From a virus (taxonomy: Duplodnaviria > Heunggongvirae > Uroviricota > Caudoviricetes): 28,377 nt of DNA. Shown here piece by piece: positions 9,950 through 24,992 of this stretch. A model generated the notes under the pieces. It did not search any database. It saw only the letters and a program-made list of their open reading frames with translations, and had not been told where the DNA came from. How positions within the stretch are numbered: the first letter of the stretch is position 1; every line of letters begins with the position of its first letter. The stretch covers positions 1 through 28,377 of IMG/VR virus record IMGVR_UViG_2675903575_000014. One strand, given 5' to 3'. The position numbers and the translations under genes were made by a program.

Positions 9950-10372
9950 ATGGCAAAAGTATTTACACAGAAAGAGCGAGAAAAAATTAAAGGGCAGATT
10001 GTTGATCTCGTACGCCAGAGCGGGCGAGAGACGTTACGACAACTGGAAGCTAAAACGGGGGCGACAAGATATCTGATAAGCGTTCTTGCCAGAGAGTTGG
10101 TTGCGAGCGGTGATGTATACAACTCTGGCTGCGGGTTATTCCCGTCTGAACAGGCTCGTAAGGACTGGCAAAACGCCCGCAAAAAGCTCTCAAGGGCAAA
10201 GGTGAAGAAAACGGTTGTGGTTGATCCGGACCTTATCTGGTCATTACCTGACGGAGAAATACGTCGCTACGACAGTCGTCTAAACATAATCTGTCGCGAG
10301 TGCCGGAAGAGCGAAGTTATGCAGCGCATACTGGCATTTTATCAGGGAAATGTTTGGTATTTATTGAAATGA
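9950..10372 (+). CDS. Hypothetical protein (140 aa) with N-terminal winged-helix-like segment and C-terminal CxxC
   Basis: GGGGAGGG SD before the ATG at 9950; basic; conserved nin-region position. Confidence 0.55.
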   Translation: MAKVFTQKEREKIKGQIVDLVRQSGRETLRQLEAKTGATRYLISVLARELVASGDVYNSGCGLFPSEQARKDWQNARKKLSRAKVKKTVVVDPDLIWSLPDGEIRRYDSRLNIICRECRKSEVMQRILAFYQGNVWYLLK

Positions 10373-10564
10373 CGAGATTAAAGAGCATTAGTTCAGATAT
10401 TAATTGACACTTCGGTTGCATAAGACTAGAACTACTGTGATTGGCATCTTTGTGCCAAAAACGGACATTACAGTGTATGGTTAATTCTGCCTGTCAAATA
10501 ACTTACATTCATCAAATGTTCGAAATTATGACTTAGCTCAACAATTAGGTTTAGCATGGGTCAT

Positions 10565-10596
10565 ATGACTAGAGTGCAGCAACTTTCTGCTATAAT
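10565..10596 (+). promoter_or_regulatory. Putative promoter with extended -10 (TGcTATAAT) for the KTSC gene
   Basis: TATAAT at 10591-10596 preceded by TG; AAGGA SD and ATG at 10613 follow. Lies in an AT-rich intergenic region. Confidence 0.4.
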
Positions 10597-10612
10597 TTAA
10601 TAAGGATAAAAA

Positions 10613-10840
10613 ATGCCAGCTTATGCTAATAAAGGCGGTAATTCGGGTATAGTGTTTTATGAGGTTACTCCAGATGCTATCACAGTACAGTTTAAAGATG
10701 GATGGAAATACGTTTACGATTCTACAAAACCAGGGGCTTTAACGGTCTCTAGGATGAAAGAGTTAGCCCAGGCTGGGCATGGGCTAAATAGTTTTATTAG
10801 TAGTGTGGTTAAGAAAAATTTCTCACGTAAATACCTTTAA
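10613..10840 (+). CDS. KTSC-domain protein (75 aa)
   Basis: Size and motif pattern (GIVFYEVTPDAITVQFKDGWKYVYDS...) fit the small KTSC domain family found in phages; AT-rich codon usage. Family assignment is by eye. Confidence 0.6.
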   Translation: MPAYANKGGNSGIVFYEVTPDAITVQFKDGWKYVYDSTKPGALTVSRMKELAQAGHGLNSFISSVVKKNFSRKYL

Positions 10841-10847
10841 TTTTAAT

Positions 10848-10874
10848 TGAGGGTGGGAAGGACTATCACCCTCA
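10848..10874. terminator. Hairpin between convergent genes (possible bidirectional terminator)
   Basis: 8-bp stem TGAGGGTG / CACCCTCA with an 11-nt loop between the KTSC gene (+) and the OLD gene (-); weak T-tract. Confidence 0.3.
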
Positions 10875-10993
10875 TAATTCTTCACCATTCAATCAAGAGC
10901 AATTCAAGGTGATTTTTTCTGTACATAGTCGGTTAGTTAGCACTTCGTAATTTATTGAATAGAAGGCTTTTGGAACAGTATCTTCACTCGTGC

Positions 10994-12874
10994 TTATCGC
11001 CCAGCAGATTTAGCAAGAATAGTCTCGAGCATTTCTGGTACGTTGCCTTTAGCATTGATAGTTGCTGTTCGGTAAGCTAGTTGATTTTTTGAGAGATTGA
11101 TTCCTGTAAGTGCTTCAATTTCGTTGCAGGCCTTACCCCATTCTACCCAGTTTTCAGACAAAAAAGATTCAAGATGATCCGCAAATATAGCAATATCATT
11201 AGTAACTGTTGCAGCTGGAAAATCCTCTTCGGGCATACCAAAGTATCTAAGCAGACTTCGATTCTCCATTGCGTGATTATTCCGCTCGGCATCGATAGCT
11301 CCCTGCATTTTATTTTTCGCTTTGGCACGAGCTTCAAAACCCGCATCTGCATCGAAAAGCGCGAAAACAGGAACGCCAATTGTACTTAGAATCGCATGGG
11401 CAAGTGGGATTGATGTCTTTGAACCTACAGGAACAATAGAGATGCCAGCGGCTTCAAGCGAGCCGTGTGACTTCCTGTCGCCAATTCCATAAAACACCGA
11501 TAATTCTGTTGTCCCTTCTACCAGAAAAGCTCTTTGGGCAAAGAGAGCTATTGAAAGCTGATCAGCTACATTATGGCCAAGCCTTCTATCAACTACTTCG
11601 GCATTAACAATTCCTTTTAATTTATCTTTGACATCTTCGATGGTTGCAAAGTGAACAGAAACAACGGGGTTTGCATCAGATGTTCGTGTCAATCGTCTAA
11701 TCTGGTTGAAATGGCGAGCTTCAAGAAAGTATGGGCTGTGAGTCGCATATGTTATCTGTATGCGCTTATCCGCATCTTCGGCGAGTTCTCTGAGTACTTT
11801 TGCAAATGCTTGTGCTTGGATCGGATGCTGAAATAATTCTGGTTCTTCGATCGCAAGGCAAATAACACCTTCGGTAGAGGCTGCACCAGACTGAGCTAAT
11901 AATTGGAGAGCAGAGATCAGTATCGTGCGTTGAAAGCCGTGCCCTTGCCTTTCGACTGCTGTTTCGGTTGTGCCATCAAGCACAGAAACTTCGAATGTGG
12001 TCTTGGGGGCCTTCAGTTCGATATTTGCAGGGGTAACTGTAACAGCACGACCGGGGGAGTAAGTCGTAACTACGGCGTTCAACTGCGCCGTCATATCCGC
12101 AAGTTGGGTTTCGAATTTTTCTTTGTAGACTTTCTGCTGCTGGACTCGGGATTCTTCAACAATCTTTGCAATTTCCTCATCTGCGGCGGTGCGATCAATC
12201 GAACGTTCAAGAATTCGACCAATAATACTCGCCTTGCCATCGAGAGACTCTTCACTGGCACGAAGATCTGCTGTTACCAAAACGTAATCAAAGAGACCGC
12301 TCATCTTGCCGCCACTGTTGAAACCGAAAAAGTTGGTTTGTAGGGATTCAAGTGCCTCATGTAGTAATTCTGTATGTGATGCTTCCCATGCAGTCATTGC
12401 TTCTTCGACAGCAAGCCCGGTCTTGGCAACGGGAAGATTGAATTCAGGATGTGCTTCTCGAAGAGCGTTGTACAAATCCTTCTTCGCTGTTGCTCCATTA
12501 GCAGCTTTAATATCGTTAAAATAAGGGAAACTTTTTGCGTTGGCAGAAAGCCTTTCTGAACCGTCGGGCGCGCGTAGCCTCCAGGCAGTGAATGTTGCTG
12601 CTCCCTGCGGAGCGTATTTGCCAAGTGCTTCACGATCTCTCTCAGTGAGGTTTGAGAAGGTAACCTGTACCTCAATATCTTTATCAATAGTTCCAAATGA
12701 GCAATCTTTTTCATTTAACATCCCGACCTTACCGTTGAAGAACCAATCAAGTGCTCGGAGAACAGTAGATTTACCTGCCCCATTCGGGCCAATGAACGTT
12801 GTAACGGAATCGAAGGGAATATTTATATCTGTCAAAGTACGAAAGTTTTTTATCCTAACGGAATGAATTTTCAT
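10994..12874 (-). CDS. OLD-family ATP-dependent nuclease (N-terminal ABC-type ATPase plus C-terminal Toprim; 626 aa); class 1 OLD or fused PARIS AriA-AriB-like
   Basis: Walker A GPNGAGKST (residues 30-38); Walker B-like VICLAIEEPELFQHP; H-loop-like YATHSPYF; C-terminal Toprim-like FLVEGTTE, VPVGSKTS and FALFDADAG. No adjacent UvrD-like helicase gene. AT-rich relative to flanking phage genes. Confidence 0.8.
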   Translation of the reverse strand: MKIHSVRIKNFRTLTDINIPFDSVTTFIGPNGAGKSTVLRALDWFFNGKVGMLNEKDCSFGTIDKDIEVQVTFSNLTERDREALGKYAPQGAATFTAWRLRAPDGSERLSANAKSFPYFNDIKAANGATAKKDLYNALREAHPEFNLPVAKTGLAVEEAMTAWEASHTELLHEALESLQTNFFGFNSGGKMSGLFDYVLVTADLRASEESLDGKASIIGRILERSIDRTAADEEIAKIVEESRVQQQKVYKEKFETQLADMTAQLNAVVTTYSPGRAVTVTPANIELKAPKTTFEVSVLDGTTETAVERQGHGFQRTILISALQLLAQSGAASTEGVICLAIEEPELFQHPIQAQAFAKVLRELAEDADKRIQITYATHSPYFLEARHFNQIRRLTRTSDANPVVSVHFATIEDVKDKLKGIVNAEVVDRRLGHNVADQLSIALFAQRAFLVEGTTELSVFYGIGDRKSHGSLEAAGISIVPVGSKTSIPLAHAILSTIGVPVFALFDADAGFEARAKAKNKMQGAIDAERNNHAMENRSLLRYFGMPEEDFPAATVTNDIAIFADHLESFLSENWVEWGKACNEIEALTGINLSKNQLAYRTATINAKGNVPEMLETILAKSAGR

Positions 12875-13295
12875 TTTGCTTCCCTTCCCAATATTGTGCC
12901 TTTTGATCAGTTATCTGATTAGATGTCGGAAAAATCACCCATGGGTATAGACTATGCGAAAAGCCATTGGTTGACTACCTCAATGTATCCTGTATCAACA
13001 ATGAAAATGTCCGTTCTTCGCTCACAGAGTTAGTGCGACAGCTTCGCACCAAGAGCTGACATTGTAATATCCGACAGGCTATTGCCTGTCAGTTAAGGGA
13101 GCAGTTACGTGTTATAAAAGGTCAGGCGGGATCCTGACTAGGCGTGTTTAAAGAAGTGCTGGTGGTGAGCGGGTGTTGTGTCCAATTTCCACAGAAAAAA
13201 AATCTGAGAAACTATACCCAATAGTTGTATTGAATCACTGACGAGACAGCCTCATATTTATCAGGACTGGCGTACGTCCAATTCAGGAGGTTGTC

Positions 13296-13385
13296 GTGCT
13301 GGTTCTCAAATGTGCGCTAGCTATTGCGGCTGTAATGGCAATTTATTGTCTTGCTGTTGTTCTTACGGATCGCCTTTCTGATTGA
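13296..13385 (+). CDS. Candidate small hydrophobic peptide (29 aa; VLVLKCALAIAAVMAIYCLAVVLTDRLSD from a GTG start)
   Basis: Perfect AGGAGG SD 5 nt upstream of the GTG; single predicted transmembrane helix followed by a charged tail, like type I toxins or a truncated Hok N-terminus. Confidence 0.3.
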   Translation: MLVLKCALAIAAVMAIYCLAVVLTDRLSD

Positions 13386-13469
13386 TTTTATATTGGCGAG
13401 GTGACGTGAGTTAAGTAGAATTGCTGCGGGTGCTTGAGGCTATCTGTCTCAGGCATGAACACCAAAGGC

Positions 13470-13560
13470 AGATAGAGAAAAGCCCCAGTTAACATTACGC
13501 GTCCTGCAAGACGCTTAACATTAATCTGAGGCTCAATCTATGAACGGCAAATCTAGGTTA
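13470..13560 (-). ncRNA. Predicted Sok-like antisense RNA of the hok locus (position approximate)
   Basis: Inferred from hok/sok family architecture. The leader (gcttgaggctatctgtctcagg ... ggcagatagagaaaagcccc) resembles, from my memory of R1, the hok mRNA 5' region. No explicit promoter was mapped. Confidence 0.25.
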
Positions 13561-13596
13561 GCCTCTTACGTGCCGAAAGGCAAGGAGAAGCAGGCT

Positions 13597-13752
13597 ATGA
13601 AGCAGCAAAAGGCGATGTTAATCGCCCTGATCGTCATCTGTTTAACCGTCATTGTGACGGCACTGGTAACGAGGAAAGACCTCTGCGAGGTACGAATCCG
13701 AACCGGCCAGACGGAGGTCGCTGTCTTCACAGCTTACGAACCTGAGGAGTAA
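13597..13752 (+). CDS. hok: Hok/Gef-family type I toxin (51 aa; MKQQKAMLIALIVICLTVIVTALVTRKDLCEVRIRTGQTEVAVFTAYEPEE)
   Basis: Single transmembrane helix followed by the conserved Cys-containing periplasmic tail typical of Hok/Gef; I recall this as matching E. coli HokD/RelF, unverified. An in-frame upstream ATG at 13540 gives a 70-aa mok-like extension. Confidence 0.85.
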   Translation: MKQQKAMLIALIVICLTVIVTALVTRKDLCEVRIRTGQTEVAVFTAYEPEE

Positions 13753-13842: not shown

Positions 13843-13967
13843 GTCGCATTATGAGGTTGTAATTTTAGCTACCATTAGACTATCCTAAGGATCTCAAACA
13901 GATCTATTTTGCATCAAATTTGGTGCATGGCTTTGCCAATAATCGGAAAACAAAAGGACTCATTAGT

Positions 13968-14147
13968 ATGAGCTGCCCACTCAAAAAACACACGCGGTTG
14001 AGTATTCCGCCTCGCGATAAAAGCGTTGTGGCAGTCCCTCGCCCAGCGATTGATGAAAACTGCGCACATCGTGAACAAGTGAAAAATGCTTTTGATTTCG
14101 GTTTTTCTCGTTATGAGAAAGCCATGGAAGAACTTTCAAAAGTGTAA
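13968..14147 (+). CDS. Candidate antitoxin for the Doc-like toxin (59 aa)
   Basis: Small ORF 19 nt upstream of the Doc-like gene; AAAGGA SD. No clear similarity to Phd; assigned by position only. Confidence 0.4.
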   Translation: MSCPLKKHTRLSIPPRDKSVVAVPRPAIDENCAHREQVKNAFDFGFSRYEKAMEELSKV

Positions 14148-14165
14148 TGATGGGTATTGTGCTCT

Positions 14166-14651
14166 ATGGCTGAGATTGTTGAAGGAGTGCATTACCTTAC
14201 GGTTGATGATCTTGTTGAAATCAATCGTTCCCTAATTGAATTACAGACGCCAGATGAGCCCGTTGGTGTTCTGAGTCCAGATAACTTAAGTTCTTCTCAG
14301 GCCCGTCCCAGCATGGTTCGATGGTATGAACAGACTAATGACATGTTTGTACTGGCATCGGTATTGATTGAAAGTCTGATTCAGAATCATCCGTTTGCTA
14401 ATGCGAACAAACGAACAGCTATGATGGCTGGTTACGTCTTCTTGTTGTTGAATGGCTATGAGTTAACAGCACCAGGCGATGAAATCGTGGAAATGGCAGA
14501 GGGACTGGCCTGCAAAACCTATACTCGAGAAGATCTCGAGAACTGGTTGTGTTATTGGTCTCGCGCGTATGACAGCCGGGAATTATGTAAAACAGGCGCA
14601 ACTATTGTTTTGTATGAAACTATCAAGCTTAGAATAGAACAGCAAAACTAA
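14166..14651 (+). CDS. doc: Doc-family toxin (Fic/Doc fold, 161 aa)
   Basis: HPFANANKRTA matches the Doc signature H-x-F-x-(D/N)-(A/G)-N-K-R (P1 Doc has HIFNDANKRTA). Size is appropriate and it is followed by a terminator. Confidence 0.8.
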   Translation: MAEIVEGVHYLTVDDLVEINRSLIELQTPDEPVGVLSPDNLSSSQARPSMVRWYEQTNDMFVLASVLIESLIQNHPFANANKRTAMMAGYVFLLLNGYELTAPGDEIVEMAEGLACKTYTREDLENWLCYWSRAYDSRELCKTGATIVLYETIKLRIEQQN

Positions 14652-21328: not shown

Positions 21329-21718
21329 ATGTCTGAACCCTTATCCGGTTCCAGCACTGCTGTGGCGCTCGGCGGGGCGACGGTATTCGGGCTGTTTACC
21401 GGGACGGATTTCGGGATTGTGTTTGGCGCGTTTGCCGGGGCGTTGTTTGTGGCCACGATGCCACAGGTGATTTCTGTCTGGCGTGTGGCGGCGCATTTTC
21501 TGGTGTCGTTCATTGTTGGCGTGCTGGGGGCGGATGTCCTTGCGTCCTGGCTGGTCGAAAAATTGAATCTCCACAGCACATCTCTCGACGCGCTTTGTGC
21601 GGTACTGGTATCGGTGGTGTCGGTGAAGATTCTCTCATTCATCCACCAGCAGGATATCGCATCGCTGGTATCCGGGCTGTTCTCCCGTCTGCGGGGTGGA
21701 GGCGGTAATGTTAAGTAA
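21329..21718 (+). CDS. Putative holin (129 aa, three predicted transmembrane segments)
   Basis: AGGAG SD; Gly/Ala-rich hydrophobic helices; located immediately upstream of the endolysin. Confidence 0.6.
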   Translation: MSEPLSGSSTAVALGGATVFGLFTGTDFGIVFGAFAGALFVATMPQVISVWRVAAHFLVSFIVGVLGADVLASWLVEKLNLHSTSLDALCAVLVSVVSVKILSFIHQQDIASLVSGLFSRLRGGGGNVK

Positions 21719-21986
21719 CCTTCCCGGATTACTGAATGTGGTGTTAAGCACGGTTATCGTGCTGACGCTCTTTTTTTATCGTCGTGGTGAGTCGAGACAT
21801 AAACCGCTGATGTCGTGGCTGGCCTGGCTGCTGATGCTGCTTTATGCCTTTGCGCCGCTTTGTTATCTGTGTGGTCGCTTTCCACCCGGTAACTGGCTGG
21901 TCGTCCTGATTAACCTGGTGTTCTGCGTGCTGGTGATACGAGCACGCGGGAACGTATCAAAAATCCTTGTATTACGAAGGCGCTGA
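21708..21986 (+). CDS. Second small membrane protein of the lysis cassette (92 aa; holin or antiholin-like)
   Basis: GGAGG SD; its ATG overlaps the holin stop; two or three hydrophobic segments; its stop abuts the endolysin start. Confidence 0.5.
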   Translation: MLSNLPGLLNVVLSTVIVLTLFFYRRGESRHKPLMSWLAWLLMLLYAFAPLCYLCGRFPPGNWLVVLINLVFCVLVIRARGNVSKILVLRRR

Positions 21987-21987
21987 T

Positions 21988-22533
21988 ATGAAGTCGAAAG
22001 ATGAAATTTTTGACGAAATTCTGGGAAAAGAGGGCGGTTACGTCAATCACCCGGATGATAAAGGTGGTCCGACTAAATGGGGCATCACTGAAAAAGTTGC
22101 CCGTGCACACGGTTATCAGGGCGATATGCGTGACCTGACGCGTGGGCAGGCGCTGGAAATACTCGAGGCGGACTACTGGTACGGACCACGATTCGACCAG
22201 GTTGAGGACCTGTCTCCGGATATTGCCGCAGAGTTGTGCGATACGGGCGTGAACATGGGGCCAACTGTGGCGTCCAGAATGCTTCAGCGCTGGCTGAACG
22301 TTTTCAACCTGCGCGGGAAACTCTATCCGGATATGGATGCTGATGGACGCATCGGGCCGCGTACTCTTAATGCATTACGGGCATATCTGAAAAATCGCAG
22401 CAGGGATGGTGAACTGGTACTGGTGAAAGCCCTGAACTGTACGCAGGGCGAGCGTTATCTGGAGCTGGCAGAGAAACGCGAGGCCAATGAGTCGTTTGTC
22501 TATGGCTGGATGAAAGAGCGCGTGGTGGTTTAA
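21988..22533 (+). CDS. Endolysin, glycoside hydrolase family 108-like with C-terminal peptidoglycan-binding domain (181 aa)
   Basis: N-terminal EGGYVNHPDDKGGPTKWGIT is the GH108 signature; C-terminal region resembles a PG-binding domain (GRIGPRTLNALRAY). Confidence 0.85.
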   Translation: MKSKDEIFDEILGKEGGYVNHPDDKGGPTKWGITEKVARAHGYQGDMRDLTRGQALEILEADYWYGPRFDQVEDLSPDIAAELCDTGVNMGPTVASRMLQRWLNVFNLRGKLYPDMDADGRIGPRTLNALRAYLKNRSRDGELVLVKALNCTQGERYLELAEKREANESFVYGWMKERVVV

Positions 22534-22626
22534 AAACTGACACTGAAGTGCTGAACACCCTCAACTCATGCAGGCTCTTTTCTGGGGCTACGATGAGCGA
22601 AAGTAAGGGGCATAGCATCAGATAGC

Positions 22627-23892: not shown

Positions 23893-24297
23893 TCATGTTA
23901 AAAAAGATTGCGGCATTACAGCAGCCCTTCACTCTAAGGGGCTGCTGTAATGTGAGAAATAAAAAACCGGTCCAGCTACACAGAACCGGCCGGCGAAGAC
24001 CGCCAATACCACCCATGCATTGATGCAACATACTAATGACAATAGCCGCTATTGATGTAAATGCAATGTTATGCATCGACGAAAATAAAAAACCGGCAGG
24101 GGAAATCCATTGAAGATTTGCCGGTGGCAAAAGAGGGCCATGCTTTTAACCTTAGTCGCAGAGTTACGGAGTGCAACAACGACCGTCGCCGTTATCTTGC
24201 TGAAAGGCGTTTCAATGATTTTCATCAATTTATTCATCAGCAATGGTGATAATCACTCTCATTTGTGCGGGTCCTTCCGGTGGGGTGGCCTGCCACG

Positions 24298-24309
24298 GGG
24301 CGGCGACCT
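24298..24309 (+). other. cosN cohesive-end sequence (lambda-type GGGCGGCGACCT) within the cos region (about 24250-24510)
   Basis: The 12-nt GGGCGGCGACCT followed by CGCGGGTTTTCGCTATTTA matches, from memory, the phage lambda left end; Nu1 starts about 200 bp downstream as in lambda. Confidence 0.75.
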
Positions 24310-24514
24310 CGCGGGTTTTCGCTATTTACGAGTTTTTTTGAGGTGATGGTTGTTGTTTTATCGTTTGATATATCTACTTGATAAGTAATAAGAAAGAAAA
24401 ATAAACACAACAACCTGATGATCTTTCTTATACGAAAAAGCATGTAAAATCAGAGGGTTTTACAAAAAACGTGGTTGTTGTATTGCTTTTTTGCCGGTGG
24501 TTTATGGAGGGGCT

Positions 24515-24992
24515 GTGGCCTTTTTATTGAATAAAAGCGACATGGCCTCCTCCATCGGTATCTCTGTACAGGCATTTGATAAATGGGGTGTTCCTCCTGT
24601 TGAGCGCCGGGGGAGAGAGGTTTTCTATGACGTTAAAACTGTACTGGAGATAGATCGCGAGCGACGTCAACAAAACCAGAAATCTTCAGGTGGTGAAAAT
24701 GATCTTGAGGAAAGGCTACTTCAGGCCAGGGTTAACCTGACGGAAGAACAGGCTATTGCTCAGCGGTTAAAAAACCAGGTTGCAGAGCATAAGGTGATTG
24801 ATACAGCTTTCTCTATTTTTGCCCTGTCCCGGTTATCCGGAGAACTGGCATCTGTTTTGGACAGTATTCCGCTTTCGATGCAAAGAAAATTCCCTGAATT
24901 GACAGGCAGACAATTGGCTTATCTAAAAGAGCTGGTTGCGAAGGGGGCTAATAAATGCGTTGAGTCTGCTGAAAAAATGAAGGAATTTGCGG

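Follow-up and report, generated by a model that had tools for sequence, protein, structure and literature searches.

A predicted class-1-like OLD-family nuclease gene in the AT-rich cargo of an Escherichia coli lambdoid prophage, with a likely role in defence against other phages

The stretch of viral DNA analysed here (IMG/VR record IMGVR_UViG_2675903575_000014, positions 1 to 28,377, referred to below as the window) has a length of 28,377 nucleotides (nt) and carries, on its minus strand, a gene for a protein of the OLD family in which an ABC ATPase and a Toprim nuclease are joined in one polypeptide of 626 amino acids (aa). The reading favoured here, to which a probability of roughly three in four can be given, is that this protein is an enzyme of the Thermus scotoductus OLD (Ts OLD) / P2 Old type acting as a single polypeptide, that its gene is separately transcribed within the AT-rich cargo of a prophage, and that it most likely shields the lysogen from other phages. 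The domain architecture, the intact sets of ATPase and Toprim residues, the cassette-like mobile context and the strong purifying selection are directly shown here, and the defence function, the substrate and the trigger are proposed by analogy with characterised relatives. The gene is a previously uncharacterised member of a known family; the pairing of OLD with a DUF2130 gene, which is seen in its clade, is undescribed. The gene and its main parts are as follows.

10994..12874, minus strand: OLD-family nuclease gene, 626 aa, ATG start (open reading frame (ORF); Pfam; PADLOC; RefSeq WP_044866928.1, 'ATP-dependent nuclease')
12879..12889, minus strand: purine-rich ribosome-binding site GGGAAGGGAAG, read from the sequence, ending 5 nt before the ATG
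11726..12874, minus strand: N-terminal ABC ATPase region, aa 1-383 (Pfam AAA_15; invariant residues)
12764..12790, minus strand: Walker A / P-loop GPNGAGKST, aa 29-37 (motif read; G29, G34, K35 and S36 invariant)
10997..11545, minus strand: C-terminal Toprim nuclease region, aa 444-626 (PF20469 over aa 444-510; alignment to 6P74; model confidence of about 90 or above)

The OLD-family architecture of the protein is confirmed, with matches far beyond chance. Pfam AAA_15 covers aa 1-383 with E=7.1e-43, AAA_21 matches at 1.4e-16 and OLD-like_TOPRIM (PF20469) covers aa 444-510 at 2.6e-15, whilst the best PADLOC model is 'Old' (1.3e-55). An earlier note on this DNA, made from the letters alone, had proposed an OLD-family ABC ATPase plus Toprim nuclease on the basis of six peptide motifs, and these matches agree with it. 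All six motifs are present in the translation as that note had placed them: the Walker A sequence, ICLAIEEPELFQHP (aa 338-351), YATHSPYF (376-383), FLVEGTTE (450-457), VPVGSKTS (481-488) and FALFDADAG (504-512).

To assess conservation, 59 homologs sharing 27-89% identity were aligned, and the catalytic residues are preserved among them. Besides the Walker A residues already listed, G311, G313, R316, E343, E344, P345, E346, Q349, H379, E453 and D510 are invariant in the 59 homologs, at least 90% of which also keep D508, K486, E569 and K596. The key residues of the ATPase are therein represented by Walker A K35, the signature-like G311-R316, the Walker B/catalytic pair E343-E344, Q349 and the H-loop H379. 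In Ts OLD, metal A is bound by E377, D431 and D433 and metal B by D381, S478 and E480, with R487 in addition (Schiltz et al., PMC7049728). In HMMER alignments to the Ts OLD structure (6P74), E453/D508/D510 of the window protein align with the metal-A set E377/D431/D433, and E457 aligns with the metal-B ligand D381; mutagenesis has shown that the Ts OLD residues with which the catalytic residues align are needed for cleavage. From its position, E569 is likely to be the second metal-B ligand. Two conserved basic residues are found in the Toprim region, K486 and K596, and the latter is by position a candidate counterpart of R487.

An AlphaFold2 (AF2) model built from a diverse alignment, with added homologs at about 45-50% identity, reached a predicted local distance difference test score (pLDDT) of 81.4 and a predicted template modelling score (pTM) of 0.76, with the Toprim region above 90. 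It replaced an earlier AlphaFold model made with close homologs only (76-94% identity), for which pLDDT was 67.8 and pTM 0.43 and whose template modelling (TM) scores were uninformative. Heads of SMC, Rad50 and RecF are among its structural neighbours. Within a helical insert (about aa 190-300) the model contains a long helix, 229-272, with pLDDT of only 50-75 there; the insert is a candidate dimerisation domain.

Sequence and structure both place the protein nearest to the archetypes of class 1, and it can be described as a class-1-like OLD as far as profiles and the predicted fold allow. Ts OLD (6P74) is the best match among solved structures in phmmer (7.2e-25), in which GajA, PtuA and Eco8 OLD reach only 1e-5 to 1e-7, via the P-loop region. 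With a profile of the 59-member family the values are 1.9e-57 for Ts OLD, 7e-27 for GajA and 1e-8 for Eco8 OLD. The AF2 model gives the same order in Foldseek: 6p74 is first (E 6e-20, TM 0.60), followed by GajA (1.6e-17) and Eco8 OLD (2.8e-12). Homology with P2 Old is clear and distant, with 23% identity over 527 aa (E 4e-22) and an hhalign probability of 99.9%. This placement rests on the first rank of Ts OLD by sequence, profile and Foldseek, on the homology with P2 Old, on the absence of DUF4435, the AriB domain (no Pfam match in the protein even at E<=1), and on the lack of partner genes in the window. Related to the latter, the window contains neither a UvrD-like helicase nor a reverse transcriptase nor a retron RNA according to the RefSeq annotation of the identical region and to Rfam, which finds only sok; the earlier note was thus right about the missing helicase. 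No AriB or DUF2130 partner gene was found in the window either, and downstream of the OLD gene there is a 153-bp spacer followed by a convergent gene of 75 aa.

The whole window is 100% identical to a region of E. coli N61, a bovine mastitis isolate (NZ_AP028880.1), and the RefSeq annotation of that region shows that it covers a lambdoid prophage with its integration site beside potC. The OLD gene is opposed to the early-right operon of the N61 prophage. The replication module (DUF1376/P, DUF1627, DUF977) is found on one side of it, and on the other hokD/sok, a doc-family toxin gene, DUF968, rusA and Q follow one another. Its immediate surroundings form a cassette of about 2.7 kb with a guanine-plus-cytosine fraction of 0.43, the flanks having 0.52 and 0.49; the homology shared with other E. 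coli prophages stops at ~10355-10469 on the left and restarts at ~13136 on the right.

10470..13135 (approximate), unstranded: AT-rich cargo cassette comprising p75, OLD and the region upstream of OLD, with the prophage DUF977 gene on one side and the hok/sok locus on the other
11221..12945, unstranded: segment missing from 25 E. coli genomes (from the junction sequence and BLAST breakpoints)

In 5426 complete E. coli genomes, the DUF977 backbone gene was found in 4070 and the cassette in only 28. The OLD gene is intact in three of these 28 (99.9-100% identity), and the other 25 share one common deletion of 1725 bp, which extends from the promoter region through the start codon to codon 551 of OLD. 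What is left is an 82-aa ORF composed of 7 new residues and the last 75 aa of OLD, annotated as 'hypothetical protein' (for example L002:4595-4843, minus strand; L numbers denote the loci compared). At the corresponding position, directly behind the DUF977 gene, E. coli strain 98202 has genes for TetR, adenosine deaminase, a non-canonical purine NTP pyrophosphatase and SIR2 (L104:5717-8790), a set that looks like another defence-type cargo. Since strain 98202 carries other cargo at the same position, the site is a cargo hotspot.

Outside this prophage, most homologs have a length of exactly 626 aa and an identity of 76-81%, and they occur in Enterobacterales, Aeromonas, Halomonas, Herbaspirillum, Nitrosomonas, Gluconobacter and Acetobacter, within a wider family of 602 clusters (at 50% identity) with E<=1e-30. 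This fixed length, together with an identity of 70-80% across proteobacterial classes, is unusually tight for mobile defence cargo. A 69%-identical copy is carried by the P2-like Burkholderia phage KS5 (NC_015265.1), between tail genes S and V and without DUF2130; at the nucleotide level, window positions 11700-12349 and KS5 positions 23912-24561 are 76% identical over 650 nt.

The neighbourhood of the gene was surveyed at 80 species-level loci of the clade, and a DUF2130 (PF09903) gene was found in about 37 of them, mostly starting a few bases past the OLD stop: 3 nt in Enterobacteriaceae, and 3-9 nt in the pairs from E. coli H6, E. coli ET245, Klebsiella and Citrobacter, whose OLD proteins are also exactly 626 aa long and 77-80% identical to the window protein. 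The DUF2130 protein has about 470 aa, with an N-terminal CxxC, a coiled coil and PF09903 (e.g. L016:7552-8964 and L017:7559-8968, both minus strand, and L007:7884-9296, plus strand). PADLOC, PHROG and the solved structures yielded no match for it and NCBIfam only a sub-threshold one, and no link between DUF2130 and OLD was found in the papers searched. One of these loci, L020, retains only a 43-aa DUF2130 stub and therefore records the loss of DUF2130 by deletion; a DUF2130 remnant was also searched for downstream of the OLD gene of the window, and none was found. UvrD domains were detected in only 2 of the 107 neighbour proteins scanned from the DUF2130-bearing loci, and helicases, reverse transcriptases and retron RNAs are not recurrent neighbours across the 80 loci.

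Some of the OLD-DUF2130 pairs are nested in an operon with the order BrxR, SNF2, DUF4391, the pair, Mod and Res, and others follow hsdM-hsdS-hsdR. Genes nested in restriction-modification operons are often defence genes ('guilt-by-embedding' preprint 10.1101/2024.01.29.577857), and the nested pair illustrates how a defence module can lie inside a system resembling restriction-modification. The SNF2/DUF4391/Mod/Res context was counted in 6 loci, and the other neighbours of the pair are diverse (integrases, Fic proteins and other defence-like genes). The arrangement of BrxR, SNF2 helicase, DUF4391, the pair, an N6_N4 methylase and a type III Res was noted at L003, L017, L018, L021, L025, L069, L071 and L087. 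Embedding of this kind as a rule for the clade was rejected: recognisable homologs of type I or type III-like restriction-modification proteins, as judged by BLAST with those of two loci, are present at only about 17 of the 80 loci, and it is one context among several.

The deep branches of the clade, at 40-50% identity, lack DUF2130. In a neighbour-joining tree, which is rough, the window lineage (E. coli, Yersinia and one metagenome contig, none of them with DUF2130) branches from within the DUF2130-linked sequences, and forms without DUF2130 arose several times independently. It was also considered whether the form without DUF2130 is specific to phages, and this was rejected, as 11 IMG/VR loci included 6 with DUF2130 and 4 without it. 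Among three relatives lacking DUF2130, the ratio of nonsynonymous to synonymous substitution rates (dN/dS) is 0.08-0.11 at dS 0.5-0.8, so the lone OLD gene is maintained by purifying selection. The window lineage derives from a two-gene OLD-DUF2130 module and has since lost DUF2130, and this suggests that OLD acts as a self-sufficient effector, with DUF2130 as an accessory.

Two characterised relatives indicate how such an enzyme could act. P2 OLD cuts tRNA and requires its ATPase (PMC12445682), and Vc OLD, from Vibrio cholerae, is a DNA nickase whose defence depends on the residues of Walker A, Walker B and Toprim (PMC12392090). By analogy, the window protein would dimerise through the helical insert, as proposed from Ts OLD (PMC7049728), and ATP binding or hydrolysis would gate a two-metal Toprim site, which would then cut double-stranded nucleic acid. 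The cut may consist of nicking or degrading DNA, as in Ts OLD and Vc OLD, or of cleaving the anticodon stem of tRNA, as in P2 OLD; in either case the replication of the invading phage would be blocked or the infection aborted. A trigger tied to anti-restriction or to RecBCD inhibition is plausible, as a speculation, because sister loci are linked to restriction-modification systems. The phage-defence reading as such draws its support from the prophage cargo site, the SIR2-type cargo at the same site, the KS5 copy and the restriction-modification neighbours of homologs.

Several points weigh against the reading of the gene as a phage-defence nuclease. The OLD gene is rare and mostly decayed in E. 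coli (3 intact copies versus 25 deleted), and it may thus be costly or of little use there. Scans of 10400-13700 with promoter and terminator consensus sequences returned nothing above chance, and expression of OLD in the lysogen is presumed. The nearest relatives usually have a DUF2130 partner and the lone gene could be impaired. The class 1 OLDs of P2, Vc and YbjD differ in substrate and trigger, which makes any transfer of mechanism among them insecure, and no publication mentioning the accession numbers of the OLD protein was found.

A rival explanation is that the window gene is the orphaned half of an OLD-DUF2130 module, inactive or unregulated without DUF2130 and being lost in E. coli. 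It would account for the position of the window lineage inside DUF2130-linked relatives, for the frequency of DUF2130 genes starting a few bases past the OLD stop (~37/80), for the loss by deletion recorded in the L020 stub and for the 25 of 28 cassettes from which OLD has been deleted. On the other hand, the copies without DUF2130 keep the 626-aa frame, all the catalytic residues and a dN/dS of 0.08-0.11, they arose several times and persist, in phage KS5 among others, and the single-gene OLDs of P2, Vc and YbjD work alone; the orphan explanation is for these reasons considered unlikely. Very unlikely is that the nuclease serves the life cycle of the prophage itself (replication, recombination or degradation of host DNA) and not defence, even though the gene adjoins the replication module and many proteins of replication and repair have Toprim and ABC ATPase domains. 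Against it, the gene is opposed to the early-right operon, in an AT-rich cassette carried by only 28 of the ~4070 DUF977-bearing E. coli genomes; prophages from which it has been deleted are common, and the same family is found in non-phage islands and inside restriction-modification operons.

The two remaining alternatives concern the class of the enzyme. The earlier note could not decide between a class 1 OLD and a fused PARIS (AriAB), in which an AriA-like ATPase would sense anti-restriction proteins and release or activate a fused Toprim tRNase of the AriB type. The PADLOC AriA model does match at 5e-45, covering the ATPase only (aa 1-384), fused AriAB forms have been reported (PMC12392090), and the restriction-modification systems adjoining homologs could fit an anti-restriction trigger. 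Yet the DUF4435-type Toprim that is paired with AriA is not found in the window protein, and no PARIS chain is among the best 60 of the 194 solved chains matched by the family profile at E<=1. The class 1 half of the proposal therefore stands and the fused AriAB half, highly improbable as it now appears, is not supported. Scarcely credible is an effector of Gabija (class 2) or of a retron (class 3) whose partner lies elsewhere. Many PADLOC GajA models match, more weakly than 'Old' (1e-27 to 1e-18), GajA is a close structural match, and the NCBIfam retron Eco8 effector gives 61 bits against a cut-off of 250, no NCBIfam model reaching its own cut-off with this protein; against this, the helicase, reverse transcriptase and retron RNA are missing from the window and are not recurrent at the 80 loci, and the family profile favours Ts OLD by 30 orders of magnitude.

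A broader proposal, which is tentative and has a real but minority chance of being correct, is that the clade represents a distinct OLD subtype whose typical form is the two-gene OLD-DUF2130 operon, spread horizontally across bacterial phyla and repeatedly tied to restriction-modification operons, and that it would constitute a fifth genomic-context class. If this were true, the pair could be held in reserve and come into action once restriction has been inhibited, and the N61 copy would be a natural minimal variant with OLD working alone, DUF2130 and perhaps the 75-aa protein serving to tune sensing or regulation.

The remaining features of the cassette and its right flank are the following.

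10613..10840, plus strand: 75-aa ORF 'p75', WP_044866927.1, convergent with OLD (ORF; homologs at related loci)
10849..10873, unstranded: inverted repeat GAGGGTG...CACCCTC between p75 and OLD (sequence and RNAfold)
13428-13752, plus strand: hok/sok type I toxin-antitoxin locus immediately right of the cassette (sok RNA, Rfam RF01794, 110 bits, plus hokD)
14157-14651, plus strand: Fic/Doc-family 'death-on-curing' toxin gene (toxin plus preceding ORF span 13920-14651)

The inverted repeat is a candidate bidirectional terminator, which the consensus terminator scan did not return. As for p75, a homolog in Yersinia is 85-87% identical and stands beside an 89%-identical OLD, and at 13 of the 80 loci a p75 homolog adjoins the OLD module, placed immediately before OLD or, in convergent orientation, behind DUF2130. 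Reverse look-ups with four homologs found one beside OLD-DUF2130 (Citrobacter) and three beside unrelated cargo. Of these three, one accompanies pentapeptide-repeat genes in a P4-like element, another an AAA_13 ATPase with an adjacent Ogr/Delta gene, and the third an EcoRII restriction-modification system flanked by the P2-like genes V and S. On the grounds of these counts p75 was rejected as a dedicated partner of OLD; it is a recurrent small companion of defence cargo in mobile-element hotspots and not an OLD-specific subunit. It has no Pfam or PADLOC match, and the label 'KTSC domain-containing' that one source gives to a homolog is without Pfam support. The p75 domain also forms part of virion proteins in phiKZ-like jumbo phages.

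The annotation shows no Phd-type antitoxin near the Doc-family toxin gene of the window; a 75-aa ORF at 13920-14147 (phrog_2208) precedes the toxin gene and could be its antitoxin. In the late region of the prophage there is an IS3-family element at 21381-22543 (plus strand) with an ORF6N-domain pseudogene nearby, and for this reason the N61 prophage may be defective.

Within a widespread anti-phage family, the class 1 OLDs form the branch about which least is understood, with phenotypes only for P2 Old, Vc OLD and YbjD, and the window gene offers a compact candidate native to E. coli, from an unusually conserved and mobile clade, that could readily be cloned together with its cassette. What is of greatest interest is found beyond the window, in the OLD-DUF2130 pairing: as the clade occurs with and without DUF2130, it provides a ready-made comparison of what the accessory adds to the OLD effector. 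In addition, the 82-aa 'hypothetical protein' of 25 E. coli genomes is now explained as the remnant of a nuclease gene.

In comparison with known systems, PARIS (class 4 OLD) resembles the window gene in combining an ABC ATPase with a Toprim nuclease, in being frequently carried by prophages or satellites and in its possible links with restriction-modification. However, PARIS normally consists of two proteins, with a Toprim of the DUF4435 type, and AriA is a weaker structural match to the window protein than generic SMC heads are. From Gabija GajA the window gene differs in the lack of a GajB helicase neighbour and in a profile match that falls about 30 orders of magnitude below that of Ts OLD. 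Vc OLD and E. coli YbjD/OldB can be likened to the window gene by description, as single-gene OLDs with reported anti-phage phenotypes (PMC12392090, PMC13261556); Vc OLD is a RecBCD-independent DNA nickase, whereas the phenotypes of YbjD do not need its Toprim domain, and the contrast among P2, Vc and YbjD shows how far the members of class 1 differ. With P2 Old, the protein of P2-lambda interference, the window protein shares the condition of a single-gene, prophage-borne OLD of lysogenic conversion, and the two are homologous through the ATPase and the Toprim up to the DxD motif. Nevertheless, P2 Old is a distant relative and the window gene belongs to a lambdoid genome, not to P2, at another kind of locus, so that the RecBCD-inhibition trigger and the cleavage of the tRNA anticodon stem described for P2 Old (PMC12445682) should not be assumed for it. 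The nearest likeness is with Ts OLD (6P74), which has the same collinear build of an ABC ATPase head, a helical insert (predicted in the window protein) and a C-terminal Toprim.

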